A stretch of DNA of 64,000 nt from Candidatus Omnitrophota bacterium (GTDB taxonomy: Bacteria; Omnitrophota; Gorgyraeia; Gygaellales; Profunditerraquicolaceae): positions 685 to 64,684 of the forward strand of contig JBDRLN010000040.1 in the NCBI GenBank assembly GCA_043812955.1, in the 5' to 3' direction. The notes below the pieces were generated by a model. The model had not been told where the DNA came from. It made no database searches and saw only the letters and a program-made list of their open reading frames with translations. Position numbers and translations under genes: made by a program. The stretch's first letter is position 1. Every line of letters starts with the position of its first letter. Below are positions 3,814-60,312 of the stretch, piece by piece.

Positions 3814-5368
3814 TGCGGAATTAAATGGCGTAGCAATGGGATTAATCCGGATAATCTTTATTTTTACTCTGTGCTCTGTGCTCTGTGCTCCTAGCTCATG
3901 GGCTGAAGAAATCAAGCAGCCGAATGTTGCCGGTAAATTCTATCCTGATAATTCCCGGGAATTATCAGGCCAAGTAGATAAATACCTCACTGAGGCAGAG
4001 CCTGAAACTATTAACGGAGAAATATTCGCCTTAGTTGTCCCTCATGCTGGTTATGATTTCTCCGGGCCAACCGCGGCTTATGCCTACAAATTAGTCAAAG
4101 ATTTACCTTATAAAACTGTAATTATTATTGCTCCCAGCCATTATTATGGATTCCGGGGAGTTTCAGTATATCCTTCGGGATTTTTCCGGACTCCTTTAGG
4201 CGATATTGAAATCGATAAGGATTTTGCTTCTAAATTGCTTTATCGGGATCCGGAGATATTGTTTGAGCCTCAGCCTTTTGCCCAGGAACATTCCGTAGAG
4301 GTCCAGCTTCCGTTTTTGCAGAGAAGTCTTTCTGACTGGAAAATCGTTCCTATTATTATGGGTGATTGCACTCTGTTAACCTGTAAAAAACTAGCTGGCT
4401 TAATTAAAGAAGCAGTTGGCCTGCGTAAAGATGTTTTGGTGGTAGCTTCCACTGATATGTATCATGGCCATGATTATCAAGAATGCCCGATAGTTGATAA
4501 CCTAACCAGCTCTTTATTAAATAATCTGGATGACGAAGGACTGTATTATGGTTTGCGCGAAGGTAAATTACAACTTTGCGGAGGCCTGCCGGTTGTAACT
4601 ACTTTGATTTTGGCCAAAAGCCTGGGACATATTGAGTCCAAGCTTTTAAAATATACCAATTCAGCTGAAGTAACCGGAAACAAAATTAAAGGGGTTTGGA
4701 CAGTAGGGTATTCCAGTTGGGCTATTGATGCTTCGACAGAGCAGGGCATCGACCCTGAGCAGGGTCGAAGGGTCGATCAGAGTCAAAATAAGGGGGAGGC
4801 AGGGATGTTTAATCTAAAACAAAAGAGGAGATTAATAGAGATTGCCCGTTCTTCAATAGAGGCCTATTTAAAAACCGGCAGAAGGCCGGAGGTTAAAGAG
4901 TCTGATCCGCAGTTGCTTAAATCAATGGGGGCTTTTGTAACTTTAAATGAACACGGCCAGTTACGCGGCTGTATCGGTAACCTTATCGGAAACCAGCCGT
5001 TATATCTTACAATTAGAGATATGGCAGTAGAGGCAGCAGTAAGCGACCCGCGTTTTTTGCCAGTCAAATTAATTGATTTGGCAAATATTGAAATTGAAAT
5101 TTCAGCGCTTTCTCCTATGGAAAGGGTTGATTCTGCGGATAAGATTATTTTAGGTAAGCACGGAGTATTGGTAAGAAAAGGTTTTAAGAGCGGAGTATTT
5201 CTTCCCCAGGTAGCTACTGAAACCGGATGGTCAAAAGAGGAATTTCTGGCTAATTTATGCAGCCATAAAGCAGGGTTAGCGCCAGATGCCTGGAAGGATA
5301 AATTGGTTGAACTTTATATTTTTAATGCCGAGGTTTTTTCCGAGAAAGAATTAAAGGCCGATGAATAA
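3782..5368 (+). CDS. Fusion of Memo-like protein (AmmeMemoRadiSam protein B) and AMMECR1-domain protein (protein A), with a signal-peptide-like N-terminus
   Basis: Memo motif VVPHAGYDFSGPTAAYAY in the N half and AMMECR1 motif GAFVTLNEHGQLRGCIGN in the C half. The N-terminus MGLIRIIFIFTLCSVLCAPSSWA-EE has an alternative start at 3836. Confidence 0.8.
   Translation: MEKRLKAYGNNAELNGVAMGLIRIIFIFTLCSVLCAPSSWAEEIKQPNVAGKFYPDNSRELSGQVDKYLTEAEPETINGEIFALVVPHAGYDFSGPTAAYAYKLVKDLPYKTVIIIAPSHYYGFRGVSVYPSGFFRTPLGDIEIDKDFASKLLYRDPEILFEPQPFAQEHSVEVQLPFLQRSLSDWKIVPIIMGDCTLLTCKKLAGLIKEAVGLRKDVLVVASTDMYHGHDYQECPIVDNLTSSLLNNLDDEGLYYGLREGKLQLCGGLPVVTTLILAKSLGHIESKLLKYTNSAEVTGNKIKGVWTVGYSSWAIDASTEQGIDPEQGRRVDQSQNKGEAGMFNLKQKRRLIEIARSSIEAYLKTGRRPEVKESDPQLLKSMGAFVTLNEHGQLRGCIGNLIGNQPLYLTIRDMAVEAAVSDPRFLPVKLIDLANIEIEISALSPMERVDSADKIILGKHGVLVRKGFKSGVFLPQVATETGWSKEEFLANLCSHKAGLAPDAWKDKLVELYIFNAEVFSEKELKADE
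3867..3890 (+). repeat. Heptanucleotide tandem repeat (CTCTGTG)x3 inside the 5' coding region
   Basis: Three exact direct copies of CTCTGTG encode LCSVLCSVLC of the signal-like segment. The unit length is not a multiple of 3. Confidence 0.8.
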
Positions 5369-6026
5369 ACATTTTATTCTGAATATGTTTTTAACCGGCT
5401 TATTATTCGGCTCAGGCCCTTGCTTAGCCAGCTGCGGCCCCATCCTGGTAACTTATATTGCCGGGACTAAAAAGAATATAGCTAAAGCCGTAATCAGTTA
5501 TGTTTTATTTTCTTTAAGTCGAATATTGGTATATCTGGTTTTAAGCCTGGCAATTTTTTTTATCGGGGCATTAAGCGTTGAGAAGATTAGCCTTAATTAT
5601 TCCGGGCTGGTATATAAAATTGGAGGCGGTTTTATTGTTTTGATCGGATTATTTATGGTTTTAGGGAAAAGAATAGGGTATCCGCATTTTTTAAATAGCC
5701 TGAGCAAAGGGCTCTTAGAAAAAGATAAGAAAAGTGTTTGTTTATTAGGTTTAATAGTCGGGCTGCTTCCTTGCGCGCCGTTATTAGCGGTATTTTCATA
5801 TATTGCCCTGGCAGCTAAGTCTACTCTTGAGAGTTTAGTTTATGGCCTATCTTTTGGAATAGGCACGATTCTTTCTCCTTTGATTTTATTAGTAATAGCC
5901 AGCGGGGCATTATCCGGTTTTATCCGCAAAAAAGAAGAGGTATATCGGCGGGTATTTAGTCTGGCCTGTGGATTAATTATTATTTTCTTAGGTCTACAAT
6001 TGATATTAAGAGGGATTAATGGTTAG
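5361..6026 (+). CDS. Polytopic membrane protein, DsbD_2/UreH-like family (CxxxC in the first TM)
   Basis: About 6 TM helices, GSGPCLASCGPIL and LLPCAPLL motifs. The family call is from memory and unverified. Confidence 0.45.
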   Translation: MNKHFILNMFLTGLLFGSGPCLASCGPILVTYIAGTKKNIAKAVISYVLFSLSRILVYLVLSLAIFFIGALSVEKISLNYSGLVYKIGGGFIVLIGLFMVLGKRIGYPHFLNSLSKGLLEKDKKSVCLLGLIVGLLPCAPLLAVFSYIALAAKSTLESLVYGLSFGIGTILSPLILLVIASGALSGFIRKKEEVYRRVFSLACGLIIIFLGLQLILRGING

Positions 6027-6753
6027 GGTTTTTTGTTTAAGCAAGGATATTTCGGGGAACAGAATTACGCTTACTGATAAGGATCAGATCCATCATTTAA
6101 GAGATGTTCTAAGGCTAAAAAAAGATGAGAAAATTGTTGCCTGCGATGAAAAAGGAGATGAATATATTACTCTGATCGATAGTATTAAACCGGGGGATAT
6201 GGTCTTAAGGATTAAAGAGAGAAAAGTATTGGTTATGGATAATAAGCCGAAGATCACTATTGCCTGCGCTATTCCTAAGAAATCCAATATGGATGATATT
6301 ATTGACAAATTGACTCAAGTGGGAGTGGATAGGATAATTCCTTTACAGACCGAAAGAGTTATTGTCAGGATCGGGCAGGATAAAAAGATATTCCGCCAGG
6401 AGCGCTGGAATAAGATTGCGCTTAATGCCAGCCGGCAAAGCCTGAGAAAGTTCCTGCCGGTAGTGGATCCGATTAAGGATATAAAAAAGGTTTTAACTGA
6501 TTTGGATGAGTTTGATTTAAGATTAATACCCACGCTTGAAGGCAAAAGAATTACCATAAAAGAAACCTTAAAAAATCCAAACTTGAAGAATATTATTGTA
6601 TTTATCGGTCCGGAGGGAGATTTCACGCTTGAGGAAATAGCCTGGGCCAAGAAATCAGGCTGTATCCCGGTTACCTTGGGAGATTTGGTTTTGAGGGTTG
6701 AGACCGCGGCTGTTGCGGTTGCCGGTTTCCTGAGGTTTTATGAAAACCGCTAA
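6019..6753 (+). CDS. rsmE: 16S rRNA (uracil1498-N3)-methyltransferase RsmE
   Basis: PUA-like N-terminus and a C-terminal SPOUT fold with IGPEGDFT...LG motifs. Confidence 0.85.
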   Translation: MVRVFCLSKDISGNRITLTDKDQIHHLRDVLRLKKDEKIVACDEKGDEYITLIDSIKPGDMVLRIKERKVLVMDNKPKITIACAIPKKSNMDDIIDKLTQVGVDRIIPLQTERVIVRIGQDKKIFRQERWNKIALNASRQSLRKFLPVVDPIKDIKKVLTDLDEFDLRLIPTLEGKRITIKETLKNPNLKNIIVFIGPEGDFTLEEIAWAKKSGCIPVTLGDLVLRVETAAVAVAGFLRFYENR

Positions 6754-8101
6754 CCCTTCGACTGGGCTTAAGGGTAATGGAGAGCGTAGTCGAAGAGTTA
6801 GGCTAATCACCCTGGGATGTAAAGTAAATCAATATGAGACCCAGGTAATCCGGGAAAATCTTCTTAAGGCCGGATTCAAAGAATCAGAAAAAAACCTTCC
6901 CGCTGATATCTACGTTATTAATACCTGTACAGTTACTCATAAGGCTGATCAGGAATCGCTTTATTATATTAATCGATCAAGGCGTCTTAACCCCAAAGCG
7001 AAAATTATTGTAACCGGATGCCTGGCTGAATTGGATAAACGGATTATTTCCCGCCAAAAAGGAATAAGCCTCATTGTTAAGAATAAAGATAAATATAGAA
7101 TAGCTAAGTTGCTAAAAGGTTCAGGCTCTAACAATGGCTCAAATATAACCGGTTTTCATAAACATACCCGGGCATTTCTTAAGATCCAGGATGGCTGTGA
7201 TAATTTTTGTACTTATTGCAAGGTTCCGCTGGTCCGGGGCGCTTCCCGCAGCCGGCCATTAAGCGAAATACTGGAAGAAGCCCAGGCTTTAGTGAAAAAT
7301 GGTTTTAAAGAAATAGTCTTGACCGGAATATGCCTAGGGTCGTATGGAAAAGATGTGGGTAGAGGTAAAGGTAGAGGTAAAGGTAGAGGTAAAGGCATAG
7401 ATTTAGTTGGGTTAATTAAAGAGCTGGAAAAAATAAAGGGGTTAATCCGGATTCGCTTGAGTTCTATTGAGGCCAAAGATGTAACGGATGAGCTTATTGG
7501 CAGGATAGCTAAATCTAAAAAATTATGCCGGCACCTGCATATACCTATTCAAAGCGGAGATAACCAGATCTTAAAGGCGATGAACCGTAAATATTCCCGT
7601 CAGGATTACCTGGGCCTGGTCAGAAAGATTAAAAATAATATTGCGGATATTGCTATTACTACCGATTGTTTAGTCGGTTTTCCCGGGGAAAGAGAAGATA
7701 ATTTTCAGAATACCGTGGATTTAGTTAAAGAGATAGTTCCTCTAAAAGTGCATATATTTCCTTATAGTGAAAGAAAAGCCACTTCGGCCTATAATTTAAA
7801 AGATAAGATCCCATCCAATATTGTCAGGGACAGGATGATTTACCTTAAAATAATTGCTAATAAATGCGCTTTAGAGTTCCGGAAGAAATTTCTCGATAAG
7901 AGGATGGATGTTTTAATTGAAGGGATGGTCAAGGGTAGCCAAGGTCTTTGGCAGGGCCATACTGATAATTACCTTAAAGTCATGGTAACATCTGATAAGG
8001 ATATCCGCAATCGCATCCTATTGGTTAAGTTAAAAGATATAAAAAGGGACAGCGACTATTTTCTTGCGTCAAAAAGGAAACGGGGTCAGAATTATTTTTA
8101 G
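6740..8101 (+). CDS. mtaB: MiaB-family methylthiotransferase (MtaB-like), carrying an internal (GRGK)3 insertion
   Basis: N-terminal MTTase domain (ITLGCKVNQYETQ), radical SAM CDNFCTYC and a TRAM-like C-terminus. The 3' end reads into the left REP half. Confidence 0.85.
   Translation: MKTANPSTGLKGNGERSRRVRLITLGCKVNQYETQVIRENLLKAGFKESEKNLPADIYVINTCTVTHKADQESLYYINRSRRLNPKAKIIVTGCLAELDKRIISRQKGISLIVKNKDKYRIAKLLKGSGSNNGSNITGFHKHTRAFLKIQDGCDNFCTYCKVPLVRGASRSRPLSEILEEAQALVKNGFKEIVLTGICLGSYGKDVGRGKGRGKGRGKGIDLVGLIKELEKIKGLIRIRLSSIEAKDVTDELIGRIAKSKKLCRHLHIPIQSGDNQILKAMNRKYSRQDYLGLVRKIKNNIADIAITTDCLVGFPGEREDNFQNTVDLVKEIVPLKVHIFPYSERKATSAYNLKDKIPSNIVRDRMIYLKIIANKCALEFRKKFLDKRMDVLIEGMVKGSQGLWQGHTDNYLKVMVTSDKDIRNRILLVKLKDIKRDSDYFLASKRKRGQNYF
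7358..7393 (+). repeat. In-frame minisatellite (GGTAGAGGTAAA)x3 inside mtaB
   Basis: Three exact 12-nt copies encoding GRGKGRGKGRGK. Related GGTARAGGTA repeats occur in intergenic DNA at 16231-16261 and 58713-58807. Confidence 0.85.
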
Positions 8102-8852
8102 TTAGATTTTCCCTTCTTATACGTCTATTAATATTAGAAGGGAGGATTTTATGGCTAGAAGACCGCGTTTATTTGTATCTGGTATACCCTACCACGTTGT
8201 TCAGCGAGGCAATAATAAAATTCCTATTTTTTTATCTGATCAGGATTACCGTTTCTTTTTAGATGTACTTCAAGAAGCCAAATCTAAACACCCATGTTTT
8301 ATTTATAGTTATTGTCTGATGCCTAACCATTTTCATTTACTTATTGAACCCAAGGAAGAAAATAATGTCAGTCTATTAATAAAGTTATTGGGAGCTAAAT
8401 ATGTGAGATATATCAATAAAAACTATGAACGTTCAGGCACTCTATGGGAAGGCCGCTTCAAATGCTCATTGATTGATAAGGAGTTATATTTTTTAACCGT
8501 TCTTCGTTATATTGAAATGAATCCGGTAAGGGCTGGCATAGTTAATTCTCCGGAGTTGTATCGGTGGTCGAGTTATCGGGTCAGGGCAATTGGTGAAAGA
8601 AGTTTTATTGTAGATATGGATCCTTGGTATGATAACCTAGGTTCTAATACAGAAGAACGTCAAAATAAATATCGGCAATTCTTCCAAAATTTAATACCTG
8701 ATCCCGCTTTGCACCTTCTAAGAGAAATGACAAATAAGAATGGTATCGTAGGCAGTATAAATTTTAAATCACGGATTGAACAATCTATTCATAAAGAAAT
8801 TGTTATAAGGTCAGCTGGTAGGCCAAAGAACGAAAAATAATTCTGACCCCAT
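8082..8852 (+). mobile_element. REP-associated tyrosine transposase (RAYT) flanked by the two halves of a REP palindrome
   Basis: GGGGTCAGAATTATTTTT at 8082-8099 and AAAAATAATTCTGACCCCA at 8834-8852 are reverse complements. The same palindrome occurs uninterrupted at 13897-13938 and 44418-44474. Confidence 0.8.
8151..8840 (+). CDS. rayT: IS200/IS605-like Y1 transposase of the RAYT type (Transposase_17)
   Basis: HUH motif NHFHLLIEP and catalytic Tyr region YVRYINKNYERSGTLWEGRF. 229 aa. The stop codon lies inside the right REP half. Confidence 0.85.
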   Translation: MARRPRLFVSGIPYHVVQRGNNKIPIFLSDQDYRFFLDVLQEAKSKHPCFIYSYCLMPNHFHLLIEPKEENNVSLLIKLLGAKYVRYINKNYERSGTLWEGRFKCSLIDKELYFLTVLRYIEMNPVRAGIVNSPELYRWSSYRVRAIGERSFIVDMDPWYDNLGSNTEERQNKYRQFFQNLIPDPALHLLREMTNKNGIVGSINFKSRIEQSIHKEIVIRSAGRPKNEK

Positions 8853-8857
8853 TAAGG

Positions 8858-9028
8858 ATGGGTGTTTTGATTGAAGGCATGATTAAGGGTAGCCTTAAGT
8901 TTTGGCAGGGCTATACCGATAATTACCTTAAGGTCAGGATTGAGTCTAATAAGGATATCCACAATTGTATTTTAGCGGTTAAGTTAAAAGATATAGAGCG
9001 GGATTATTTCATAGGTCAGAGGAAATAG
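8858..9028 (+). pseudogene. Diverged duplicate of the mtaB 3' end (C-terminal TRAM-region fragment)
   Basis: Translates MGVLIEGMIKGSLKFWQGYTDNYLKVRIESNKDIHNCILAVKLKDIERDYFIGQRK, about 65% identical to MtaB residues MDVLIEGMVKGSQGLWQGHTDNYLKV...LVKLKDIKRD. About 70% nt identity to 7908-8060. Confidence 0.6.
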
Positions 9029-9083
9029 GGGACGTCTCTATTTTCCTTAAATCCGAGGGGGCGAGAAAATAGAAACGTCCCCT
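9028..9083. repeat. Palindromic element GGGGACGTCTCTATTTTCC ... GAAAATAGAAACGTCCCC (family copy 1)
   Basis: Perfect 19-bp arms. The same family occurs at 13788-13842. Confidence 0.6.
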
Positions 9084-9090
9084 ATTAATA

Positions 9091-9127
9091 AAAAAACCCT
9101 GATGTATTTCGCATCAGGGTTTTTTTA
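9091..9127. terminator. Bidirectional rho-independent terminator shared by the convergent genes
   Basis: An A-run, then the stem CCCTGATG..CATCAGGG, then a T-run. It sits between the + strand unit and the - strand SBP gene. Confidence 0.75.
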
Positions 9128-9143
9128 TTAGAAAATACTTTGA

Positions 9144-10106
9144 TTATTCGATGATCTCCTTGGCAATTGACAGGACTGGTCCGGGAATTTTTATTCCCGC
9201 TGCTATAGCTGATTTTTTATTAATGGTTATATCGTATGACTTTAATAGCTCAATCGGAATATCCGATGGGCTCTTGCCGTTTAAGATCTGGATTGCTTTT
9301 TTAGCGGCTAATTGTCCGAGCATATAGGAGCTAGAGGATACGCATAACAGGACTCCTTTTTTTGCCCGATCAGCCATGTGCGCGGCAGTCAAAAGCTTAT
9401 TATTATTTGCTACAGTTGTGATATCTGTAAGCGCCTTGGAAACTGTTGTGCCGCCGGTTACAAATATAGCATCAACTTTTCCGACCAGGGAATTAGTTAC
9501 GGAAACAGTATCTTCTACTTTAGCCAGATTTACCGGCACAACGGTGATTTTGCTGGTTTCCTGGATTTTCTTGAATGCCTCTAATTGTTGCACTGTATTA
9601 TCTTCTGTTTCAGTGTAGATAACGCCAATCCGGGCAACCTTAACTATTTTTCTCATAGCGTTGACAATTGCAGCCATGTCTACCATGGTAGAGGTGCCGG
9701 TGTTATTATTTCCTGACGATTCCCAACTCTTGGCAATCTTGGAGCTGATCGGGTCAAATACCAGGCTAAACACAATAGGTATATTTTTTTCTGCTTTAGC
9801 CGTAGCTATGGCTGCGACGGTTCCTACCGGAATAATAACATTTACCTTATTAGCCGAGAATTCGTTAACAATTGCCGTAATTTTTTCCTTATCATTCTCG
9901 CCATTTTTAAGGGTGAAGTCTACCTTGTCTTTTCCATATCCGGATTTTTCAAATTGATCAACACTGCCTTTTTGGGCTTCCAGGTAATGCGCGGCATCCG
10001 AAGTGATAACTATTCCGATCTTGATCTTTTCCTGGGCCAGCCCGATAGAACCAAGGCCAAGGCATATTGCTAAGACAATAACTACAACTATTCCTTGCTT
10101 AAACAT
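9144..10106 (-). CDS. Orphan ABC-type substrate-binding protein (ABC_sub_bind / COG2984-like) with a signal peptide
   Basis: Signal peptide MFKQGIVVVIVLAICLGLGSIGLA. The overall periplasmic-binding fold resembles PF04392 proteins. There is no adjacent permease or ATPase. Confidence 0.7.
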   Translation of the reverse strand: MFKQGIVVVIVLAICLGLGSIGLAQEKIKIGIVITSDAAHYLEAQKGSVDQFEKSGYGKDKVDFTLKNGENDKEKITAIVNEFSANKVNVIIPVGTVAAIATAKAEKNIPIVFSLVFDPISSKIAKSWESSGNNNTGTSTMVDMAAIVNAMRKIVKVARIGVIYTETEDNTVQQLEAFKKIQETSKITVVPVNLAKVEDTVSVTNSLVGKVDAIFVTGGTTVSKALTDITTVANNNKLLTAAHMADRAKKGVLLCVSSSSYMLGQLAAKKAIQILNGKSPSDIPIELLKSYDITINKKSAIAAGIKIPGPVLSIAKEIIE

Positions 10107-10201
10107 GTCTACCTCCCTTTTATAATATGGTTTCTTTCAACCTATTGTATTATAGTAAAAATAAAAAAATATGTCAAGGATTTTCGGGAATTTATATTTT
10201 A

Positions 10202-10231
10202 TTGACAATCCCGAGTTTTTAGGAGTAAAAT
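10202..10231 (+). promoter_or_regulatory. Sigma-70-like promoter: TTGACA, 18-nt spacer, TAAAAT
   Basis: Upstream of the first Cache-paralog gene. Confidence 0.5.
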
Positions 10232-10380
10232 AGATACCAATACGAAAAGGATTCTAGATTTAAAAAAAATAAAATCTACGATCAGGTTTTTTGTCAGAAG
10301 ATTTTTTTGTTTAAAACACTATTTTTACCGTTTGCCTGACGGTAAGTCAGGGCAGGTAAGATTAATAAAAAGGTTTAAAA

Positions 10381-10986
10381 ATGAAAAAGTTTATGCCGGT
10401 GAATTTCGCAGTTGCCGGTGTTTTAGTTCTAACCGCAGTTTTAGGCATAAGTTATGCCCAGAAAAATGAATTTATTCCTGCGGAGCAGGTTTTATTTGAG
10501 CAAATAGTAGTTACAGCACAGTCCTGGGGAAAAGACCCTAAAATAGTTTCTTTTGTCAAAGCTAAGAACGCCTCCGGAGAAACCTTAGACCAGGCAAAAG
10601 AGCAAGATAAGGCCTGGATCAGTACCCCCGGAATAGACGTATTTATGAAAAGTATATTGGAGAATGGTTGTTCCAAGTATCTGCGGGAGCTGAGAAAGAC
10701 AGCGCAGGTTATCGGAGAATTTTATGTGATGGATTTAAACGGGGCCTTGGTCGGCGCAACTAATAAAATCGCTGATTATTGGCAGGGAGATGAGGATATG
10801 CATATTAAGACTTGTCAGGTTGGAGGGGCAGGCGCGACCTTTATTGATATAATAAAATTCGATCAAAGTTCTCAAAAATTTCGCCGGCAGATAAGTGTCC
10901 CGGTTATAGACCTTGCCACCGGCAATGCTATCGGCGCGATAACCGTGGGTGTTGACCTGGATAAATTAACCAAACTTTCTAAATAA
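10381..10986 (+). CDS. Secreted single-Cache (PDC-fold) domain protein, paralog 1
   Basis: Signal peptide ending SYA-QK and a Cache-like C-terminus ...RQISVPVIDLATGNAIGAITVGVDLDKL. 201 aa. Confidence 0.6.
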   Translation: MKKFMPVNFAVAGVLVLTAVLGISYAQKNEFIPAEQVLFEQIVVTAQSWGKDPKIVSFVKAKNASGETLDQAKEQDKAWISTPGIDVFMKSILENGCSKYLRELRKTAQVIGEFYVMDLNGALVGATNKIADYWQGDEDMHIKTCQVGGAGATFIDIIKFDQSSQKFRRQISVPVIDLATGNAIGAITVGVDLDKLTKLSK

Positions 10987-11016
10987 ATGTTTGCATAAAA
11001 AAATGTGTGTTTCTTA

Positions 11017-11044
11017 TTGACAAATCAGCGAGCAGTAGTAAAAT
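11017..11044 (+). promoter_or_regulatory. Sigma-70-like promoter: TTGACA, 16-nt spacer, TAAAAT
   Basis: Upstream of the second Cache-paralog gene. Its architecture mirrors the promoter at 10202. Confidence 0.5.
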
Positions 11045-11726: not shown

Positions 11727-13784
11727 TTGAGGAGGATGGCAATGGCAGGAGAAACAGCCAAAGTTAAGATGGCAGAGAGTTTGCGTTTTAGGTTGATACT
11801 TTATTTTATTTTAATTACTTTTATCCCTTTAGTTGTTTTGAGCGTCATTGCCTACAATATTACCAAGTCTAGGCTGCAAACTCAGATTGCTGGTTCTCTG
11901 GAAGTTGTGGCTAAGGAAACATTAGACAAGGTGGACCGTTTTGTCTATCAGCAGATATCCGATGTTAAATCTTGGAGTAAAAATCCGATTTTAAAAGGGG
12001 CTCTTTTTTTCGGCACCGCGGATATGGTAGATACATTGTTCAATAATACCCTTGATTCTTTTAGGGAATATGATTCGCTGGCCCTATTTGACCGTAACGG
12101 AGATGAGGTTATATCTAAGGGCGAGAGTGTGTTATATGAAAAAGGCCAGAATCAATCTCGGGCAGACTGGTTTGAGGGCGCTACAAGGGCTAATTTTTAT
12201 ATTACCGAGGTGACTAAAAATGGAAATAAAATTCATGTAGGGATATCTTCTGCAGTTGTGGATAGCGAGACTGGGGAGACCAGCGGAGTGCTGTTTGCAG
12301 AGTTTAATTTTTTGACTATCAATGAAATCATTGCTCCGGTTCAGGTAACGGCAAATATTAAAGACCAGGGTATCAGCATCATTAATAATGAAGGGCTGAT
12401 TATATTTGATTTGGATAAAGGTGCCATATTTAACAAGAATTTGATTAAGGAGGATTATATAAGTGCCAAGCAAGTCCTCTCAACCAAGGGTAGCGGCTAT
12501 GTAGTTGATCTTGATACGGGCCGGCTTACCGGGTATGCTTACAGCAAGGGTTATAAGGATTTCAAAGGTGGGATGTGGAGCCTTTTATTGGGGGTTCAAA
12601 ATAAGACTATCCTGGCCCCGGTATTGCGCTTGCGCCAGTTATTTGTGACGATTATTCTTATAACGCTGGTTATTGTTACTATTATCTCTATATTTATCAG
12701 CCGCAGGATTACTAATCCGATTAGTATTGTTACGAACGCTATTCTGGATATTGCGGAGAGGGAGGCGGATTTAACCCATAAAATTGATTATACTTCTAAA
12801 GATGAAATAGGGATGTTGGTAATGGCCTTTAATAAAATCATAGATTCAATTTATATTTTGATTAAGCAGGTTAAAAATACTGCCAACACGGTAGTTGCTT
12901 CTACTCAAACTATGTCTGCAACCACCCAGGAGATGAATGCCTCTACCCAGGAAGTATCATCGGCGATTTTACAGGTAAGTAAGGGCGCTACTTCCCAGGC
13001 AGATCATTTGTCCAGAACTTTTGATATTATAGAAAAGTCAGCGGCAAGCCTGCGCCAGGTAGTGGATAATGCCCAATTAGCTAACCAGACCTCAGATAAG
13101 ACCAGCTTGGGAGCTGAAGAGGCCTATGTTGCTGCTCAAGAAGCAGTGGAGAAGATTGAGACCTTGAATAGTTCGGTTAAGGTAGCTGCCGATGTTATCC
13201 AGGAATTAGGTGAAACATCTAAACAAATAGGCGTGATTACCGATACAATTACTTCTATTGCTGACCAGATTAATCTGTTGGCTTTAAATGCCGCTATTGA
13301 GGCTGCTCGGGCTGGCGAGGCTGGCCGGGGTTTTGCTGTTGTTGCCGAAGAGGTGCGTAAGTTAGCTGAGGGGTCTGCTGAAGCAGTGCGTAAAATCAGC
13401 GGGTATATCCGCTCGATCCAGAACGGAACCAATAAGGCAGTCAGCGCTATATTGTCAAGCTCGGAGGCAGTTAAGGAAGGCAAGGCCCGGGTAGTTAAGA
13501 TCGCCCTGACCCTGCGCGATATCAATACATCTATTAAAGAGGGCGCTGGTTTAATCAGCCAGATCGCGGCCTCCGGAACTGACCGTGTATTAGAGACCGA
13601 GAAGATAGTTAAGGCAATTAATGAGGTAGCTGATATTGCCAAACAGTCTGCCGCAACTGCCGAACAGGTATCTTCGACCAGCGAAGAGCAAACCGCGTCT
13701 ATGCAGGAAGTGTCTGCCTCTTCTCAGGAGCTTGCCCGTTTGGCAATGGATTTAAGGGAGGTAGTTAATAGGTTTAAGATTTAA
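11727..13784 (+). CDS. Methyl-accepting chemotaxis protein with a periplasmic double Cache-like sensor, HAMP and MCP signalling domain
   Basis: TM1, a roughly 250-aa periplasmic region, TM2, then HAMP. The highly conserved MCP signalling hairpin [32 protein letters not shown] is present. Confidence 0.9.
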
Positions 13785-13787
13785 AAA

Positions 13788-13842
13788 AGGGGACGTTTCT
13801 ATTTTTTCGTTTGGGCAAATCTAAAAAATAGAAACGTCCCCT
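13788..13842. terminator. Palindromic element / bidirectional terminator (GGGGACGTTTCTATTTTTT ... AAAAAATAGAAACGTCCCC)
   Basis: 19-bp arms flanked by an A-run and a T-run. Same family as 9028-9083. Confidence 0.6.
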
Positions 13843-13896
13843 TTTTAGTTTCTGATTGACACCTGCCTAAAACAGTGGTATATTACACAACACTAT

Positions 13897-13938
13897 TGGG
13901 GTCAGAATTATTTTTTCTAAAATATAATTCTGACCCCA
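13897..13938. repeat. Intact REP palindrome of the RAYT-associated family
   Basis: GGGGTCAGAATTATTTTTT, a 9-nt loop, then AATTCTGACCCC. Confidence 0.75.
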
Positions 13939-13966
13939 TTTTAAGACAGGAAAGGAGATGATATTA

Positions 13967-14134
13967 GTGCCGGAGATCGAGATTAAAAAAGGTGAGTCTT
14001 TTGAAGGGGCAATGCGCCGTTTTAAGAGAAAGATCGAAGAGGAGGGGATCTTAAGGGAAGTAAGAGACCGCAAACATTATGAAAAGCCCAGCGAGCGGAA
14101 AAGAAAGAAAGCGAAGCAAAGCAAGAGAAGATAA
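13967..14134 (+). CDS. rpsU: 30S ribosomal protein S21 (GTG start, missed by the ORF track)
   Basis: [67 protein letters not shown] lies 6 nt upstream of GTG. Stop TAA at 14132-14134. Confidence 0.85.
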
Positions 14135-28411: not shown

Positions 28412-28463
28412 CCACCCCGTAGGTGGAGCCCACCTACGGGGTGGAGCCCACCTACGGGGTGGA
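28412..28463. repeat. Tandem palindromic element CCACCCCGTAGGTGGAGCCCACCTACGGGGTGGAG (about 1.5 copies)
   Basis: GC-rich perfect palindrome. A related copy at 54472-54508 overlaps the panB stop. Confidence 0.65.
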
Positions 28464-40100: not shown

Positions 40101-40636
40101 CCGCACTTTCCATTAAAGACCTTAACCAGTGTAAAGATGAAGAGATGATAAAAATAGTCGGGATGATCACCAAGGTTAAGCATACTACTACCAGGCTCAA
40201 ACAGGAGAAGATGGCTATTTTGAAACTGGAGGATTTAGGCGGTATAGTTGAGGTCTTGGTTTTTCCGCAGGCATTTCAGAAGGTCTCTCGCTATATACAG
40301 CCTAATCTGGTGGTATTGGTAAAGGGGAGGCTTAATTTAAAGGAAGATGTACCTAAGATCATAGTTAATGATATGTTTCCTATGGATGAAATCTATAAAT
40401 TGATCACAACAGTTAATATCAATCTTACCAGTATGAGGGAGAATCTATTTGAAAGCCTCAAAGAATTATTAGGAACTTCCTCCGGGCGGATTCCGGTTTA
40501 TTTGCATCTGGATACTCCGGCTAAATCCCGGGTAAAAGTAATCGTAGGCGATAATCTTTTTGTCTCGCCTTCTGAGAAATTGATCGAGGATATTACTAAC
40601 CTTTTGGGAGAGGATAGGTTATCCCTAATCATTTAA
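37196..40636 (+). CDS. dnaE: DNA polymerase III alpha subunit
   Basis: PHP N-terminus HLHLHTQYSLLDG, polymerase core, OB fold. 1146 aa. Confidence 0.95.
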   Translation: MPHSDFIHLHLHTQYSLLDGACRLPDLLNLAKQYKMDSLAITDHGNMFGAIDFYLEALKQGVKPIIGAEVYVAPKSRLDKSSSRIEEAAFHLILLAKDETGYKNLAKLVSIGYLEGFYYRPRIDKDVLSVYHEGLIGLTACLKGEVPSLLQEGRFNDALKTADEYLNILGKDNLYLEIQVNKIPEQVTVNQGLIRISRELKIPLVATNDVHYLQKSHARAHEALLCIQTQNTLDNPNRMRFQTDEFYFKSPEEMKELFKEVPEAIANTLEIARRCNLELDFNQIHLPKYEPPLNSTKDGFLRQLCEKGLTQKYPDADAQIKERLEHELKVIKDMGFTSYFLIVWDFIHYAKSHQIPVGPGRGSAAGSIVSYLLGITDIDPLKYKLLFERFLNPERTGLPDIDIDFCYERRQEVIDYVTKKYGQENVAQIITFGTMQARAVVRDVGRVMGIAYADVDRIAKMIPPDASINLKDALEAEPQLKNLYKNDPQITKLIDIALILEGLNRHASIHAAGVVIADKPLNEYMPLFKSQDDQITSGYGMKVLEKIGLLKVDFLGLRTLTVIDQAIKIIKETKGLDIDIEKISLDDAKTYNLLSTAQTIGVFQVESSGMRDLLKKMEPEEFEDLIALLALYRPGPMGSGMLSDFIQRKRNKTPIRYDNKRLEPILKSTYGIMVYQEQIMQIASSLAGFTLAQADLLRRAMSKKIPEVMEQQRKSFVVGALKQGVSEAVASKIFDQIEFFSGYGFNRSHSAAYALISFRTAFLKANYPVEFMCALLTSERDNTDKIVEYINESERMGIEILSPDINESAALFKVVDDNKIRFGLLAIKNLGRGAIDSIISNRDKGGNFTSLEDLCQRVDLRLVNHKVLESLIKCGALDCFRVHRAQMFVSLDKILEFSSNAQKDKAKGQISFFDNEQSGNGFSDKSVASTLLIKEWPEPQLLAFEKEMLGFYISGHPLARYARQLKRFTALSIKDLNQCKDEEMIKIVGMITKVKHTTTRLKQEKMAILKLEDLGGIVEVLVFPQAFQKVSRYIQPNLVVLVKGRLNLKEDVPKIIVNDMFPMDEIYKLITTVNINLTSMRENLFESLKELLGTSSGRIPVYLHLDTPAKSRVKVIVGDNLFVSPSEKLIEDITNLLGEDRLSLII

Positions 40637-40641
40637 ATGCA

Positions 40642-40716
40642 GGGACGGTTATTAAAGACATAAGCTAAAGTGTCCCCTAAAAGGGGACACTTTAAGATCA
40701 GTTTCAGAACCGTCCC
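40642..40716. repeat. Nested palindrome (outer GGGACGGTT..AACCGTCCC, inner AAAGTGTCCCCT..AGGGGACACTTT), terminator-like
   Basis: Same architecture as the copy at 55867-55943. Lies immediately after the dnaE stop. Confidence 0.6.
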
Positions 40717-40791
40717 GGAGTTATAATAACCTGTTGCTGTATATAAAGTTTTGCTAAAAGTGCCGTAAAATAAAAATAATTCGGTTTTTAT

Positions 40792-44404: not shown

Positions 44405-44417
44405 CAATGGGAGAAAT

Positions 44418-44474
44418 GGGGTCAGAATTATTTTTTCAAGTATTTAGACTAAAGAAAAAATAATTCTGATCCCA
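44418..44474. repeat. Intact REP palindrome of the RAYT-associated family, with a 17-nt loop
   Basis: GGGGTCAGAATTATTTTTTC ... AAAAAATAATTCTGATCCCA. Confidence 0.75.
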
Positions 44475-44484
44475 TTTACAGAGC

Positions 44485-53637: not shown

Positions 53638-54483
53638 ATGAGCAAAATTACTCCTCAGGATATTTTAGGATTAAAGGGTAAGCGTAAAATTACTATGCTT
53701 ACCGCGTATGATTATCCTTTAGCTTTTTTGATTGATAAAGCAGGTATTGATATTATCCTGGTTGGTGATTCTCTGGCTAACGTGGTTTTAGGTTTAGAGT
53801 CTACCAAAGAAGTCGGGATGTCCGAGATGATTTATCATTCTAAGGCTGTTTCCCGGGCAGTTAAACAGGCCTTGCTGGTAGGGGATATGCCTTATGAATC
53901 TTACCAGGTAAATCCCGCAGAATCAGTTAATAATGCCTTAAGGTTTATTAATGAAGCTAAATGCGCTGCTGTAAAGCTGGAATGGTTTGACCAGTGTTTA
54001 GAAGTAACTGAAAAGATTATTAAATCCGGGATACCGGTAATGGGCCATATCGGGCTTACTCCTCAGACCGCGGATAAACTGGGCGGGTTTAAGGTTCAGG
54101 GCAAAGACGCGCAGGCCGCTAAGAAGTTAATCCAGCAGGCTAAAGATCTTCAAGGATTAGGTTGTTTTTCTATAGTCTTAGAATGTGTTCCGGACCGGAT
54201 AGCCCAAATCATTACCAAGGAACTTAAGATTCCTACTATTGGCATCGGGGCAGGTTTATTCTGCGATGGCCAAGTGCTGGTATCTCACGATATGCTCGGG
54301 CTATTTGATAGGTATAAACCGAAATTCGTTAAGCAATATGTGAATTTATCGGAAAGCATTTTGCAGGCGATAGAGGAATATAAGAGCGAGGTTATAAATA
54401 GCAAATTCCCGGATAAAGAACATAGTTTCAGTATTAGCCAGGAAGAGTTGGATAAGTTAAAGACTGATTTGTCCACCCCGTAG
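53638..54483 (+). CDS. panB: 3-methyl-2-oxobutanoate hydroxymethyltransferase
   Basis: ITMLTAYDYPLAFLIDKAGIDIILVGDSLANVVLG. Confidence 0.9.
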   Translation: MSKITPQDILGLKGKRKITMLTAYDYPLAFLIDKAGIDIILVGDSLANVVLGLESTKEVGMSEMIYHSKAVSRAVKQALLVGDMPYESYQVNPAESVNNALRFINEAKCAAVKLEWFDQCLEVTEKIIKSGIPVMGHIGLTPQTADKLGGFKVQGKDAQAAKKLIQQAKDLQGLGCFSIVLECVPDRIAQIITKELKIPTIGIGAGLFCDGQVLVSHDMLGLFDRYKPKFVKQYVNLSESILQAIEEYKSEVINSKFPDKEHSFSISQEELDKLKTDLSTP

Positions 54484-54508
54484 GTGGAGTCCACCTACGG
54501 GGTGGACA
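54472..54508. repeat. Palindromic element CCACCCCGTAGGTGGAGTCCACCTACGGGGTGGA overlapping the panB stop codon
   Basis: Same family as 28412-28463. It supplies the last codons (LSTP*) of panB. Confidence 0.65.
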
Positions 54509-55866: not shown

Positions 55867-55943
55867 GGGGACGGTTCTTTAGCGCAATCTTAAAGTGTCC
55901 CCTTTAAGGGGACACTTTAGCTTCAGCTTGAGAACCGTCCCCT
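55867..55943. repeat. Nested palindrome (outer GGGGACGGTTCT..AGAACCGTCCCC, inner AAAGTGTCCCCTTTAAGGGGACACTTT), terminator-like
   Basis: Second copy of the 40642-40716 architecture, immediately after the glyQS stop. Confidence 0.6.
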
Positions 55944-60252: not shown

Positions 60253-60312
60253 TGTCAACCCCAGAGGTTGACATAAATACTGTTTACCGTTGTCAACCTC
60301 TGGGGTTGACAA
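60253..60312. repeat. Compound palindrome (GTCAACCCCAGAGGTTGAC ... GTCAACCTCTGGGGTTGAC)
   Basis: Two mutually reverse-complementary copies, each itself terminally palindromic, between apt and tRNA-Arg. Confidence 0.6.

Follow-up and report, generated by a model that had tools for sequence, protein, structure and literature searches.

The window analyzed here is a 64,000-nt stretch of one contig from a Candidatus Omnitrophota metagenome-assembled genome (MAG). Loci and contigs used for comparison carry L-numbers, such as L001 and L169. In the window, the tRNA-modification gene mtaB is followed by a short gene cassette at 8077-8853, a second copy of the mtaB tail, a palindrome, and a terminator hairpin that mtaB has in common with a convergent ABC substrate-binding gene. 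The cassette is a TIRtron, in which one class-2 Y1 HUH gene lies within 22-25-bp terminal inverted repeats (TIRs) bearing the motif GGGGWSAS. This is a known kind of element, and it is well delimited here. TIRtrons consist of a gene similar to those of the REP-associated tyrosine transposases (RAYTs; REP, repetitive extragenic palindrome), flanked by long TIRs and encoding a TIRYT protein (Di Nocera 2013, PMC3733652). TIRtrons are new for the phylum; the surveys that defined TIRtrons and subclass 2.1 of the TnpA-Y1 proteins did not include Omnitrophota.

The left TIR (8077-8103, plus strand) has the form AAAC GGGGTCAGAATTATTTTT AG. Its 18-nt core, GGGGTCAGAATTATTTTT, lies at 8082-8099, and the exact reverse complement lies at 8833-8850 in the right TIR (8829-8853, minus strand). 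The inverted repeat extends to 25 nt with 92% complementarity, and the arms (8079-8103 and 8829-8853) are 725 nt apart. Between them is a single open reading frame of 229 aa (8151-8840, plus strand), the TIRYT gene, whose TAA stop codon (8838-8840) is inside the right arm. This overlap of stop codon and right arm is seen again in the relatives L002, L087, L088 and L167, and the arm-gene-arm geometry is repeated in 10 other Omnitrophota loci. Across the window, GGGGTCAGAATTATTTTT has six matches with three or fewer mismatches, against 0.19 expected, and none of 100 shuffles reached six.

The assignment of the gene product to the class-2 Y1 HUH nucleases is based on Pfam, NCBIfam, profile and fold matches. 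In the Pfam scan (E<=0.01), Y1_Tnp (PF01797) is the only model matched, with 62.6 bits against a cutoff of 23, and the match covers nearly the whole model at residues 9-123. The NCBIfam equivalog for REP-associated tyrosine transposases (NF047646) is passed narrowly, with 84 bits against a cutoff of 80. The HUH motif is H60-F61-H62, and the catalytic tyrosine is Y120 in YIEMNP, which carries the class-2 signature Y---NP. In alignments of 24 and 32 diverse homologues, H60, H62, Y120, N124 and P125 are invariant; S140-S141 and the C-terminal G223-R224-P225 are nearly so. A search of the PDB sequences with the single protein gives no match. With a family profile, the best PDB match is the Escherichia coli TnpA-REP enzyme 4ER8 (E=1.4e-6), ahead of ISDra2 TnpA, and the HUH and tyrosine motifs align with HMH and YIYINP of 4ER8. 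The AlphaFold2 model has a mean pLDDT of 90.5. In Foldseek, its top match is also 4ER8 (E=3.7e-8, TM 0.76 on the target, 159 columns), followed by the ISDra2, IS608 and IS200 enzymes. Residues 142-213, which follow the catalytic core, are modelled as helices with confidence. No helix-turn-helix (HTH) or Bac_DnaA_C match is found in this C-terminal part in the Pfam scan at E<=0.01.

An exact look-up of the protein returns no record, and a 100% identical cluster is present in the protein collection. The window contains one TIRYT gene, and most homologue clusters occur on one to four contigs. By comparison with solved relatives, the enzyme would hold a metal ion through H60 and H62 and would cut and rejoin single-stranded DNA through Y120. 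Its likely substrates would be TIR sequences folded as hairpins where two TIRs sit head to head.

The repeats at the ends of the cassette are TIRs and not REPs. Folded alone with its flanks, a half-site gives 0 kcal/mol and does no better than shuffled sequences, and the ends of the element are unstructured. A hairpin forms only when the half-sites occur as an inverted pair; the two dimers in the window fold at -16.2 and -20.6 kcal/mol (z about -8.6). The consensus over 44 oriented half-sites from the window and related Omnitrophota loci is AAAAY-GGGGTCAGAATTATTTT-TT, with each core position at least 86% conserved; the half-site can also be written as AAAAYGGGGTCAGAATTATTTTTT. In none of these 44 half-sites is a GTAG tag present, and the outer and inner flanks are AAAAY and TT. 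The TIR in the window starts with GGGGTCAG, which fits GGGGWSAS (GGGG[AT][CG]A[CG]). Beside Omnitrophota genes whose products share only 63-80% amino acid identity, the 17-nt TIR core is identical, and it is positioned about 70 nt upstream of the gene and again overlapping the stop codon.

A motif census covered the 120 homologue loci with complete flanks among the matches listed in scans of a genome collection and of metagenomes with the protein; distant homologues made up most of these matches, and Omnitrophota loci only a few. GGGG[AT][CG]A[CG] occurs within 160 nt upstream of the gene in 62 of the 120 loci and, in inverted orientation, downstream in 55; 45 loci have it on both sides. The background is 2.9% per 160-nt window. 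The hosts include Gammaproteobacteria (among them Pseudomonas), Desulfobulbia, Planctomycetota, Bacillota, Bipolaricaulota and others. In L133, which has a homologue at 973-1593, TIR cores form a tandem array: GGGGTCAG is repeated every 15 nt exactly, with six copies upstream and three inverted copies downstream. Many published TIRs share GGGGWSAS, and their families are moderately abundant and organized as dimers (PMC3733652). TIRYTs correspond to TnpA-Y1 subclass 2.1, whose long proteins share Y---NP, a serine motif and a conserved extension at the C-terminus, and whose genes have no REPs nearby (PMC6006769). The C-terminal domain of subclass 2.1 resembles HTH and Bac_DnaA_C profiles, class-2 genes are low-copy in each genome, and TIRYT/subclass-2.1 genes are found in about 15% of the strains surveyed (Quentin 2018, PMC6006769).

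A preliminary description of this DNA, made from its letters only, had presented the locus as a RAYT gene embedded in a split REP palindrome. Much of that description stands. An 18-mer and its reverse complement do bracket one gene, although the right arm, placed there at 8834-8852, lies 1-2 nt away at 8833-8850. The gene does encode a Y1 HUH transposase of the TnpA-REP (RAYT-like) class, and the uninterrupted palindromes reported elsewhere exist as hairpins at 13898-13937 and 44418-44473, where they are TIR dimers. Failure of the Y1 model and non-complementary 18-mers had been named as grounds for rejection; the protein matches the model and the 18-mers are complementary. The identification of the repeat as a REP is not retained, since what is split around the gene is a pair of TIRs. 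Likewise, the arrangement is not the defining one of REPtrons, in view of the 0 kcal/mol half-site and the missing GTAG, and is that of the TIRtron/TIRYT variant. A GTAG-like tetranucleotide, for which a search had been proposed, is absent, and the conserved outer flank is AAAAY.

The conserved 5' leader of the TIRYT gene (8104-8150, plus strand) begins with TAGTTAGATTT. In an alignment, 11 Omnitrophota loci share TAGTTAGATTT between the left TIR and the start codon, followed by a hairpin. In the window this hairpin (8110-8143) pairs CCTCC with the Shine-Dalgarno sequence GGAGG and has an invariant CGTC in its loop. The consensus fold has seven pairs, two of which show compensatory changes. 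As single-stranded DNA, the leader folds at -6.6 kcal/mol (z = -3.6). The hairpin probably damps translation of the TIRYT gene by burying its ribosome-binding site. No terminator-like site is present between mtaB and the TIRYT gene, and transcription of the latter by read-through from mtaB is therefore probable. A terminator-like site at the junction 8848-8862 is within chance expectation and was discarded.

The mtaB gene (6740-8101, plus strand, 453 aa) matches TIGR01579 with 433.6 bits against a cutoff of 357. Its reading frame enters the left TIR, where its last codons are AAA CGG GGT CAG AAT TAT TTT TAG; the TAG is part of the invariant TAGTTAGATTT that follows the repeat. The tail of the gene is present twice. 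A direct repeat with 79% identity joins 7901-8049 to 8855-9003, and the homology extends through the end of mtaB to include the first bases of the palindrome that follows each copy. Copy 1 (7901-8076, plus strand) is the functional tail, and copy 2 (8855-9028, plus strand) holds an intact frame of 56 codons (8858-9028) with no usable ribosome-binding-site spacing. A sub-threshold match to the TRAM domain begins at about 7898 in copy 1 (E=0.016); copy 2 has none. From this weak match and the general architecture of MtaB, the duplicated piece is roughly the TRAM tail of the protein. The preliminary description had the last seven mtaB codons and the transposase stop codon supplied by a REP. Both are supplied by the repeat, which is a TIR; the stop codon of mtaB likewise falls within the left TIR (8077-8103). 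It also held that the element had reshaped two gene ends, and both ends do overlap repeats; the change to mtaB is far larger, with about 330 codons that appear foreign and a displaced 56-codon tail. The second tail (8855-9028) had been overlooked.

Over 56 aligned codons, the two tails are 74% identical, with a synonymous divergence (dS) of 1.24, a nonsynonymous divergence (dN) of 0.20 and a dN/dS of 0.16. Between copy 2 and the tail of L169, dN/dS is 0.14. Copy 2 retains its 56 codons without a stop in AT-rich DNA. The low dN/dS between the copies and the intact frame of copy 2 thus indicate that the tails diverged under purifying selection, in different genomes. All four tails compared are about equally distant from one another (68-74% nucleotide identity), and the tails alone do not identify a donor. 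Relative to L171, copy 1 has about 19 nt fewer, the stop codon included. Copy 2 is in the ancestral position, because the bidirectional terminator that follows it (9086-9130), itself ancestral, is orthologous to the terminator after mtaB in L169. This hairpin has a perfect 19-bp stem, serves both mtaB and the convergent ABC gene, and has orthologues in L169 and L171.

Some features of mtaB and its surroundings are recorded here in their own right. At MtaB residues ~207-219 (about 7355-7400) there is a GRGKGRGKGRGKG repeat insert whose length varies among three related genomes. The 453-aa MtaB of the window is absent from a collection of 5.8 billion proteins, in which the TIRYT and ABC proteins of the same contig are present at 100% identity. 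The depositor's annotation may call the hybrid mtaB a pseudogene or annotate it differently. The ABC gene and the spacer that follows it (9144-10500) have 63-84% identity to L169, against a background of 88-95%, with a dN of 0.17; this is either a fast-evolving gene or a further recombined stretch.

Related genomes contain the mtaB locus in three states. L169/L170 (GCA_041643395.1) are 88-95% identical to the window outside the locus and represent the empty site. Without a cassette, mtaB (429 aa) here ends at its stop codon and is followed by the terminator hairpin and then by the ABC substrate-binding gene, which is convergent. The simply filled site is found in L171/L172 and in six further assemblies from the L001 species, whose identity to the window is about 78%. 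Here mtaB has a stop codon of its own, and 25 nt separate it from the left TIR; beyond the gene and the right TIR come ATT/AATATTAATAA, the terminator and the ABC gene, and no second mtaB tail is present. The window is the third state, with the cassette, both mtaB tails and a palindrome of a second family (GGGGACGTYTCTATTTT; 9024-9086) between the stop codon of copy 2 and the terminator. This palindrome folds at -17.7 kcal/mol and is missing at the orthologous position in L169 and L171. Repeats have affected assembly in two cases: the L001 contig breaks at the right TIR, and the L168 contig folds back on itself at the terminator. In L168 (GCA_018824565.1, JAHJFM010000037.1), a perfect self-inverted duplication surrounds the terminator hairpin after the ABC gene, with its turning point at 10963-11034, and is a fold-back artefact.

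Among the homologue loci listed, mtaB adjoins a TIRYT gene only in the sister species, and mtaB was rejected as a general target. A check of the homologue loci for flanking direct repeats finds a duplicated gene end at no other Omnitrophota locus; the flanking repeat in L012 was discarded as a tandem array of paralogous genes. Direct repeats of ~285 bp with 90% identity, apparently largely non-coding, occur in L124 (5613-5893 / 6752-7032) and L073 (2747-3036 / 3814-4103), where they flank distant TIRYT homologues with 39% and 34% amino acid identity, respectively. L166 contains two partial TIRYT copies in direct orientation (5113-5877 and 7051-7400). They are 100% identical over 343 bp, comprising the TIR, the leader and the first ~90 codons; one copy is truncated at its 3' end and the other ends at about codon 90. 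Between the copies is a Peptidase_S74 gene; RadC, HTH and ORF6N genes occur in the same region, and the genes neighbouring the copies upstream and downstream are paralogous as well.

Positions that distinguish L169 from L171 favour L169 in the window by about 4:1 between 3700 and ~7100. Between ~7100 and 8100 the two are matched about equally often, and differences specific to the window rise from 2-3 to 12-22 per 200 nt. In mtaB codons 1-120, the window and L169 are 92.6% identical, with a dS of 0.29. In codons 121-388, the window, L169 and L001 are mutually equidistant, with about 80.5% identity and a dS of 0.80-0.95 (0.86 against L169). From the switch in site pattern and this equidistance, we infer that a segment of about 1.75 kb, running from ~7100 to the right TIR, was imported from a third lineage. 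It would comprise the last ~330 codons of mtaB and the cassette. On this reading mtaB is a hybrid gene, with codons 1-~120 native and ~121-453 imported, and copy 1 would be xenologous to copy 2, the displaced native tail. At the right joint, marked here by a slash, the window has CCCCATTAA/GGATGGG and L171 has CCCCATTAA/TATTAATAA; other TIRs are flanked by CCCCATTT. The window seems to keep about 2 nt of the L171-type right flank, and this agrees, as weak evidence, with a donor in which the cassette was simply intergenic.

The proposed history begins from an ancestral locus with mtaB, its stop codon, the terminator and the ABC gene, as in L169. About 1.75 kb from a third, L171-type lineage would have replaced resident DNA. 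The left crossover would be homologous, inside mtaB near 7100. At the right end, an illegitimate joint 3-5 nt beyond the right TIR would have connected the segment to the resident mtaB where its TRAM tail begins. In the donor lineage, the recombination model predicts a right flank of ATTAATATTAATAA, with the cassette directly after mtaB. This would leave a functional hybrid mtaB, followed by the cassette and by the native tail as an orphan. Copy 1 would later have lost ~19 nt, stop codon included, which would be why mtaB runs seven codons into the left TIR. One homologous crossover and one illegitimate joint near the TIR edge explain the whole structure. Taken together, the TIRtron identity, the mechanism drawn from relatives and the one-sided recombinational arrival are considered likely. 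The arrival history, reconstructed from sequence comparisons, is the more original part. In the literature searched, neither this history nor a conserved leader hairpin occluding the Shine-Dalgarno sequence has an earlier description.

Several points weigh against this combined account. The tails are short (55-58 codons), which makes their dN/dS noisy, and the shared right flank amounts to only two informative nucleotides. Only one metagenome assembly contains the junction with copy 2. A donor lineage was not found, and the best MtaB relatives in the databases are only of the L169 type (82%) and the L171 type (76%). The window contains only two gene-less dimers. Cleavage of TIR hairpins is an analogy, there being no enzymology for any subclass-2.1 protein. 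The cassette is also closer to that of L171 (dS 0.47) than is the adjacent imported part of mtaB (dS 0.80). Between the window and L001, dS is 0.95-1.15 in three upstream genes, 0.80 in the imported part of mtaB and 0.47 in the TIRYT gene, and the jump to ~90% nucleotide identity with L001 begins at the left TIR. The low dS of the cassette reflects either slow synonymous evolution or a more recent exchange or separate history. Some RAYT groups are reported to evolve slowly (Bertels 2017, PMC5581495).

Four rival explanations (a strict REPtron, an active insertion sequence, an in-situ duplication and a misassembly) each conflict with at least one tested feature. The locus could be a canonical REPtron, with a RAYT flanked by true GTAG-tagged REP stem-loops and spreading REP or REPIN copies. 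The passed NCBIfam model (REP_Tyr_transpos), the structural proximity to TnpA-REP 4ER8 and the dispersed extragenic palindromes of the same sequence are congruent with this. However, the NCBIfam score is only 4 bits over its cutoff, the half-site has no structure of its own, and its outer end has the flank AAAAY with neither a GTAG nor a CGTC tag. The protein, at 229 aa with a C-terminal extension, is also unlike the 165-aa E. coli enzyme, and a TIR with GGGGWSAS is, in the literature, characteristic of the TIRYT branch, where REPs were not found; a REPtron is thus improbable. Self-transposition to the mtaB locus by an autonomous, currently active insertion sequence (IS) of the IS200/IS605 type, with the hairpins as its miniature inverted-repeat transposable elements (MITEs), is also unlikely. 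It would account for the empty and filled sites in close relatives, for cassettes in other neighbourhoods (a ROK gene adjoins the cassette in L002 and L004, and its surroundings in L166 are phage-like), and for the two L166 pieces that are identical over 343 bp. It would also account for the block of high identity to L001 that starts exactly at the left TIR and for a cassette dS of 0.47 against a background of 0.95-1.15. But class-2 genes are low-copy, the 64 kb contain one copy and nearly every protein cluster is on one to four contigs. The ends of IS200/IS605 elements are subterminal hairpins and not TIRs. Moreover, the insertion is not a clean cassette, since ~1 kb of foreign mtaB came with it and its left crossover was homologous, and the dimer in the rpsU leader is orthologous across species at a dS of ~1, and hence old and not recently transposed.

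Other explanations concern the two tails and the right joint. An old in-situ tandem duplication at the time of cassette insertion, with copy 2 decaying since, would explain why direct repeats flank the cassette, and recombination between such repeats could in principle yield the empty site of L169. This origin is scarcely credible, because selection on copy 2 is not relaxed (dN/dS of 0.16 between the copies and 0.14 against L169) and its 56 codons have stayed free of stops in AT-rich DNA. L171 also has the cassette without a second tail, and a local duplication leaves unexplained the ~800 nt more of foreign mtaB upstream of copy 1. An assembly artefact, in which a chimeric metagenome contig mixes two strains, is very improbable too. 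The junction does occur in one assembly only, the 453-aa MtaB is missing from a protein collection that contains its neighbours, and repeats have induced errors at this locus in other MAGs (the L001 break and the L168 fold-back). A strain chimera, though, switches at homologous positions and makes no tandem arrangement; the right TIR and mid-mtaB are joined with no shared k-mer, and the adjacency of mtaB and cassette has been assembled independently at least eight times in the sister species. Finally, the cassette may have been more than a passenger in the recombination: the Y1 enzyme itself may have made the right joint, cutting at the outer edge of the right TIR and joining it to mtaB, which is regarded as a long shot. 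If true, TIRtrons of this clade would spread with an adjacent gene end, so that the housekeeping gene they enter receives a replacement 3' end (here the TRAM domain). Islands with tyrosine recombinases are known to integrate in this gene-end-restoring way; we know of no such case for HUH elements.

The TIRs also occur as dimers with no gene between them. In the window, these gene-less hairpins have arms at 13898-13915/13920-13937 and at 44418-44435/44456-44473, and further TIR dimers occur in the loci of relatives. The first dimer (13893-13942; -16.2 kcal/mol, z = -8.7) is in the 5' leader of rpsU (S21), in a region (13857-13990) where it lies between the promoter TTGACA-17-TATATT and the Shine-Dalgarno sequence of the ribosome-binding site. 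The second (44412-44479; -20.6 kcal/mol, z = -8.5) is intergenic and flanked by co-directional genes. An orthologue of the rpsU dimer with perfect arms is present in the L001-species contig L168 (about 6880-6921). L169 has no cassette at mtaB, and the arms of its copy of the dimer (about 6047) have degenerated to GGGGCCAGTATTTTTTTT and AAAAAAATTCTGACCCC. This single case suggests that maintenance of the dimer may depend on the enzyme. The dimers may derive from the cassette by internal deletion, as suggested by a hairpin in L087 that keeps the leader sequence TTAGTTAGATTT in its loop. The dimers at 13898 and 44418 have the head-to-head form expected of a substrate and would be non-autonomous, MITE- or REPIN-like partners of the TIRYT gene. 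The position of the rpsU dimer is one from which it could affect rpsU expression.

Other palindromes are present in the window. Five exact copies of CCACCCCGTAGGTGG, three at 28412-28462 and two at 54473-54505, compare with 0.04 expected by chance. These units are small self-folding GTAG stem-loops in head-to-head pairs right after genes, and they look like canonical REPs. They are unrelated to the TIRYT repeats, and their own RAYT, if any, is outside the window. The second palindrome family (AAAA-GGGGACGTYTCTATTTT followed by its inverse) occurs at 9024-9086, at 13784-13846 and in another Omnitrophota genome (L166, 2720-2773), each time directly after a stop codon. Its layout is similar to that of a TIR dimer with a different core, and no associated gene was found. 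Intergenic palindromes at 55867-55942 and 40631-40727 have arms of the GGGGACGGTTCT type, and the palindrome at 60253-60311 contains a perfect 21-nt pair, TGTCAACCCCAGAGGTTGACA.

To our knowledge, no activity or biology is known for TIRYT/subclass-2.1 genes. The TIR core, GGGGWSAS included, is constant across the Omnitrophota clade beside proteins that differ down to 63% identity, and the motif is found again in many phyla; this argues for a specific, conserved recognition between protein and DNA. The empty, simply filled and recombinant states of one locus form a rare set, and they indicate that such cassettes move between lineages. The move in this case appears, at least on one side, to have been by homologous recombination rather than by transposition. 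The gene-less dimer in the rpsU leader has been kept sequence-perfect across a synonymous divergence of about 1 and is degenerate where the locus cassette is missing. Current views are not overturned by these observations. The locus provides defined oligonucleotides and mutants with which the biochemistry of this protein class could be tested for the first time.

Among known systems, the cassette is most readily compared with the published TIRtrons. Both have a single RAYT-like Y1 gene, long GGGGWSAS-bearing TIRs at a fixed upstream distance and overlapping the gene at its 3' end, a longer protein with a C-terminal extension, Y---NP and a serine motif, and TIRs organized as dimers. The differences are the Omnitrophota host, a C-terminal part with no HTH or DnaA_C Pfam match, the conserved leader hairpin and the proposed arrival history. 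E. coli TnpA-REP provides the best profile and fold match; the catalytic residues align, and its gene is also bracketed by an inverted dispersed repeat. Its REPs, however, are self-folding stem-loops with a 5' GTAG, whereas the half-sites here are unstructured. The two proteins share 19% identity over 159 aligned residues, and TIRYT, at 229 aa against 165 aa, has ~85 extra C-terminal residues. The REPIN-RAYT systems of Pseudomonas (PMC3116915, PMC5581495) combine a single-copy gene with extragenic hairpin doublets that persist at orthologous positions across species, similar to the one gene and the dimers of the window. They are reported to be mostly vertical, whereas the gene here appears to lie within an imported segment and has half the synonymous divergence of the genomic background.

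The IS200/IS605 enzymes (IS608 and ISDra2 TnpA) have the same fold and catalytic chemistry and presumably act, like TIRYT, on single-stranded DNA. The solved IS200, IS608 and ISDra2 structures match TIRYT less well than 4ER8 in both the profile and the Foldseek comparisons. Their elements have subterminal hairpins and many identical copies, neither of which is seen here. The closest parallel for the arrival is homology-facilitated illegitimate recombination, reportedly described in natural transformation by de Vries and Wackernagel in 2002. The present case would differ from it in that the joint is upstream of the end of homology, the gene end is duplicated and not deleted, and the organism is uncultured. 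It would resemble it in having one homologous anchor, in mtaB, and one illegitimate joint, possibly with 2-5 nt of microhomology.

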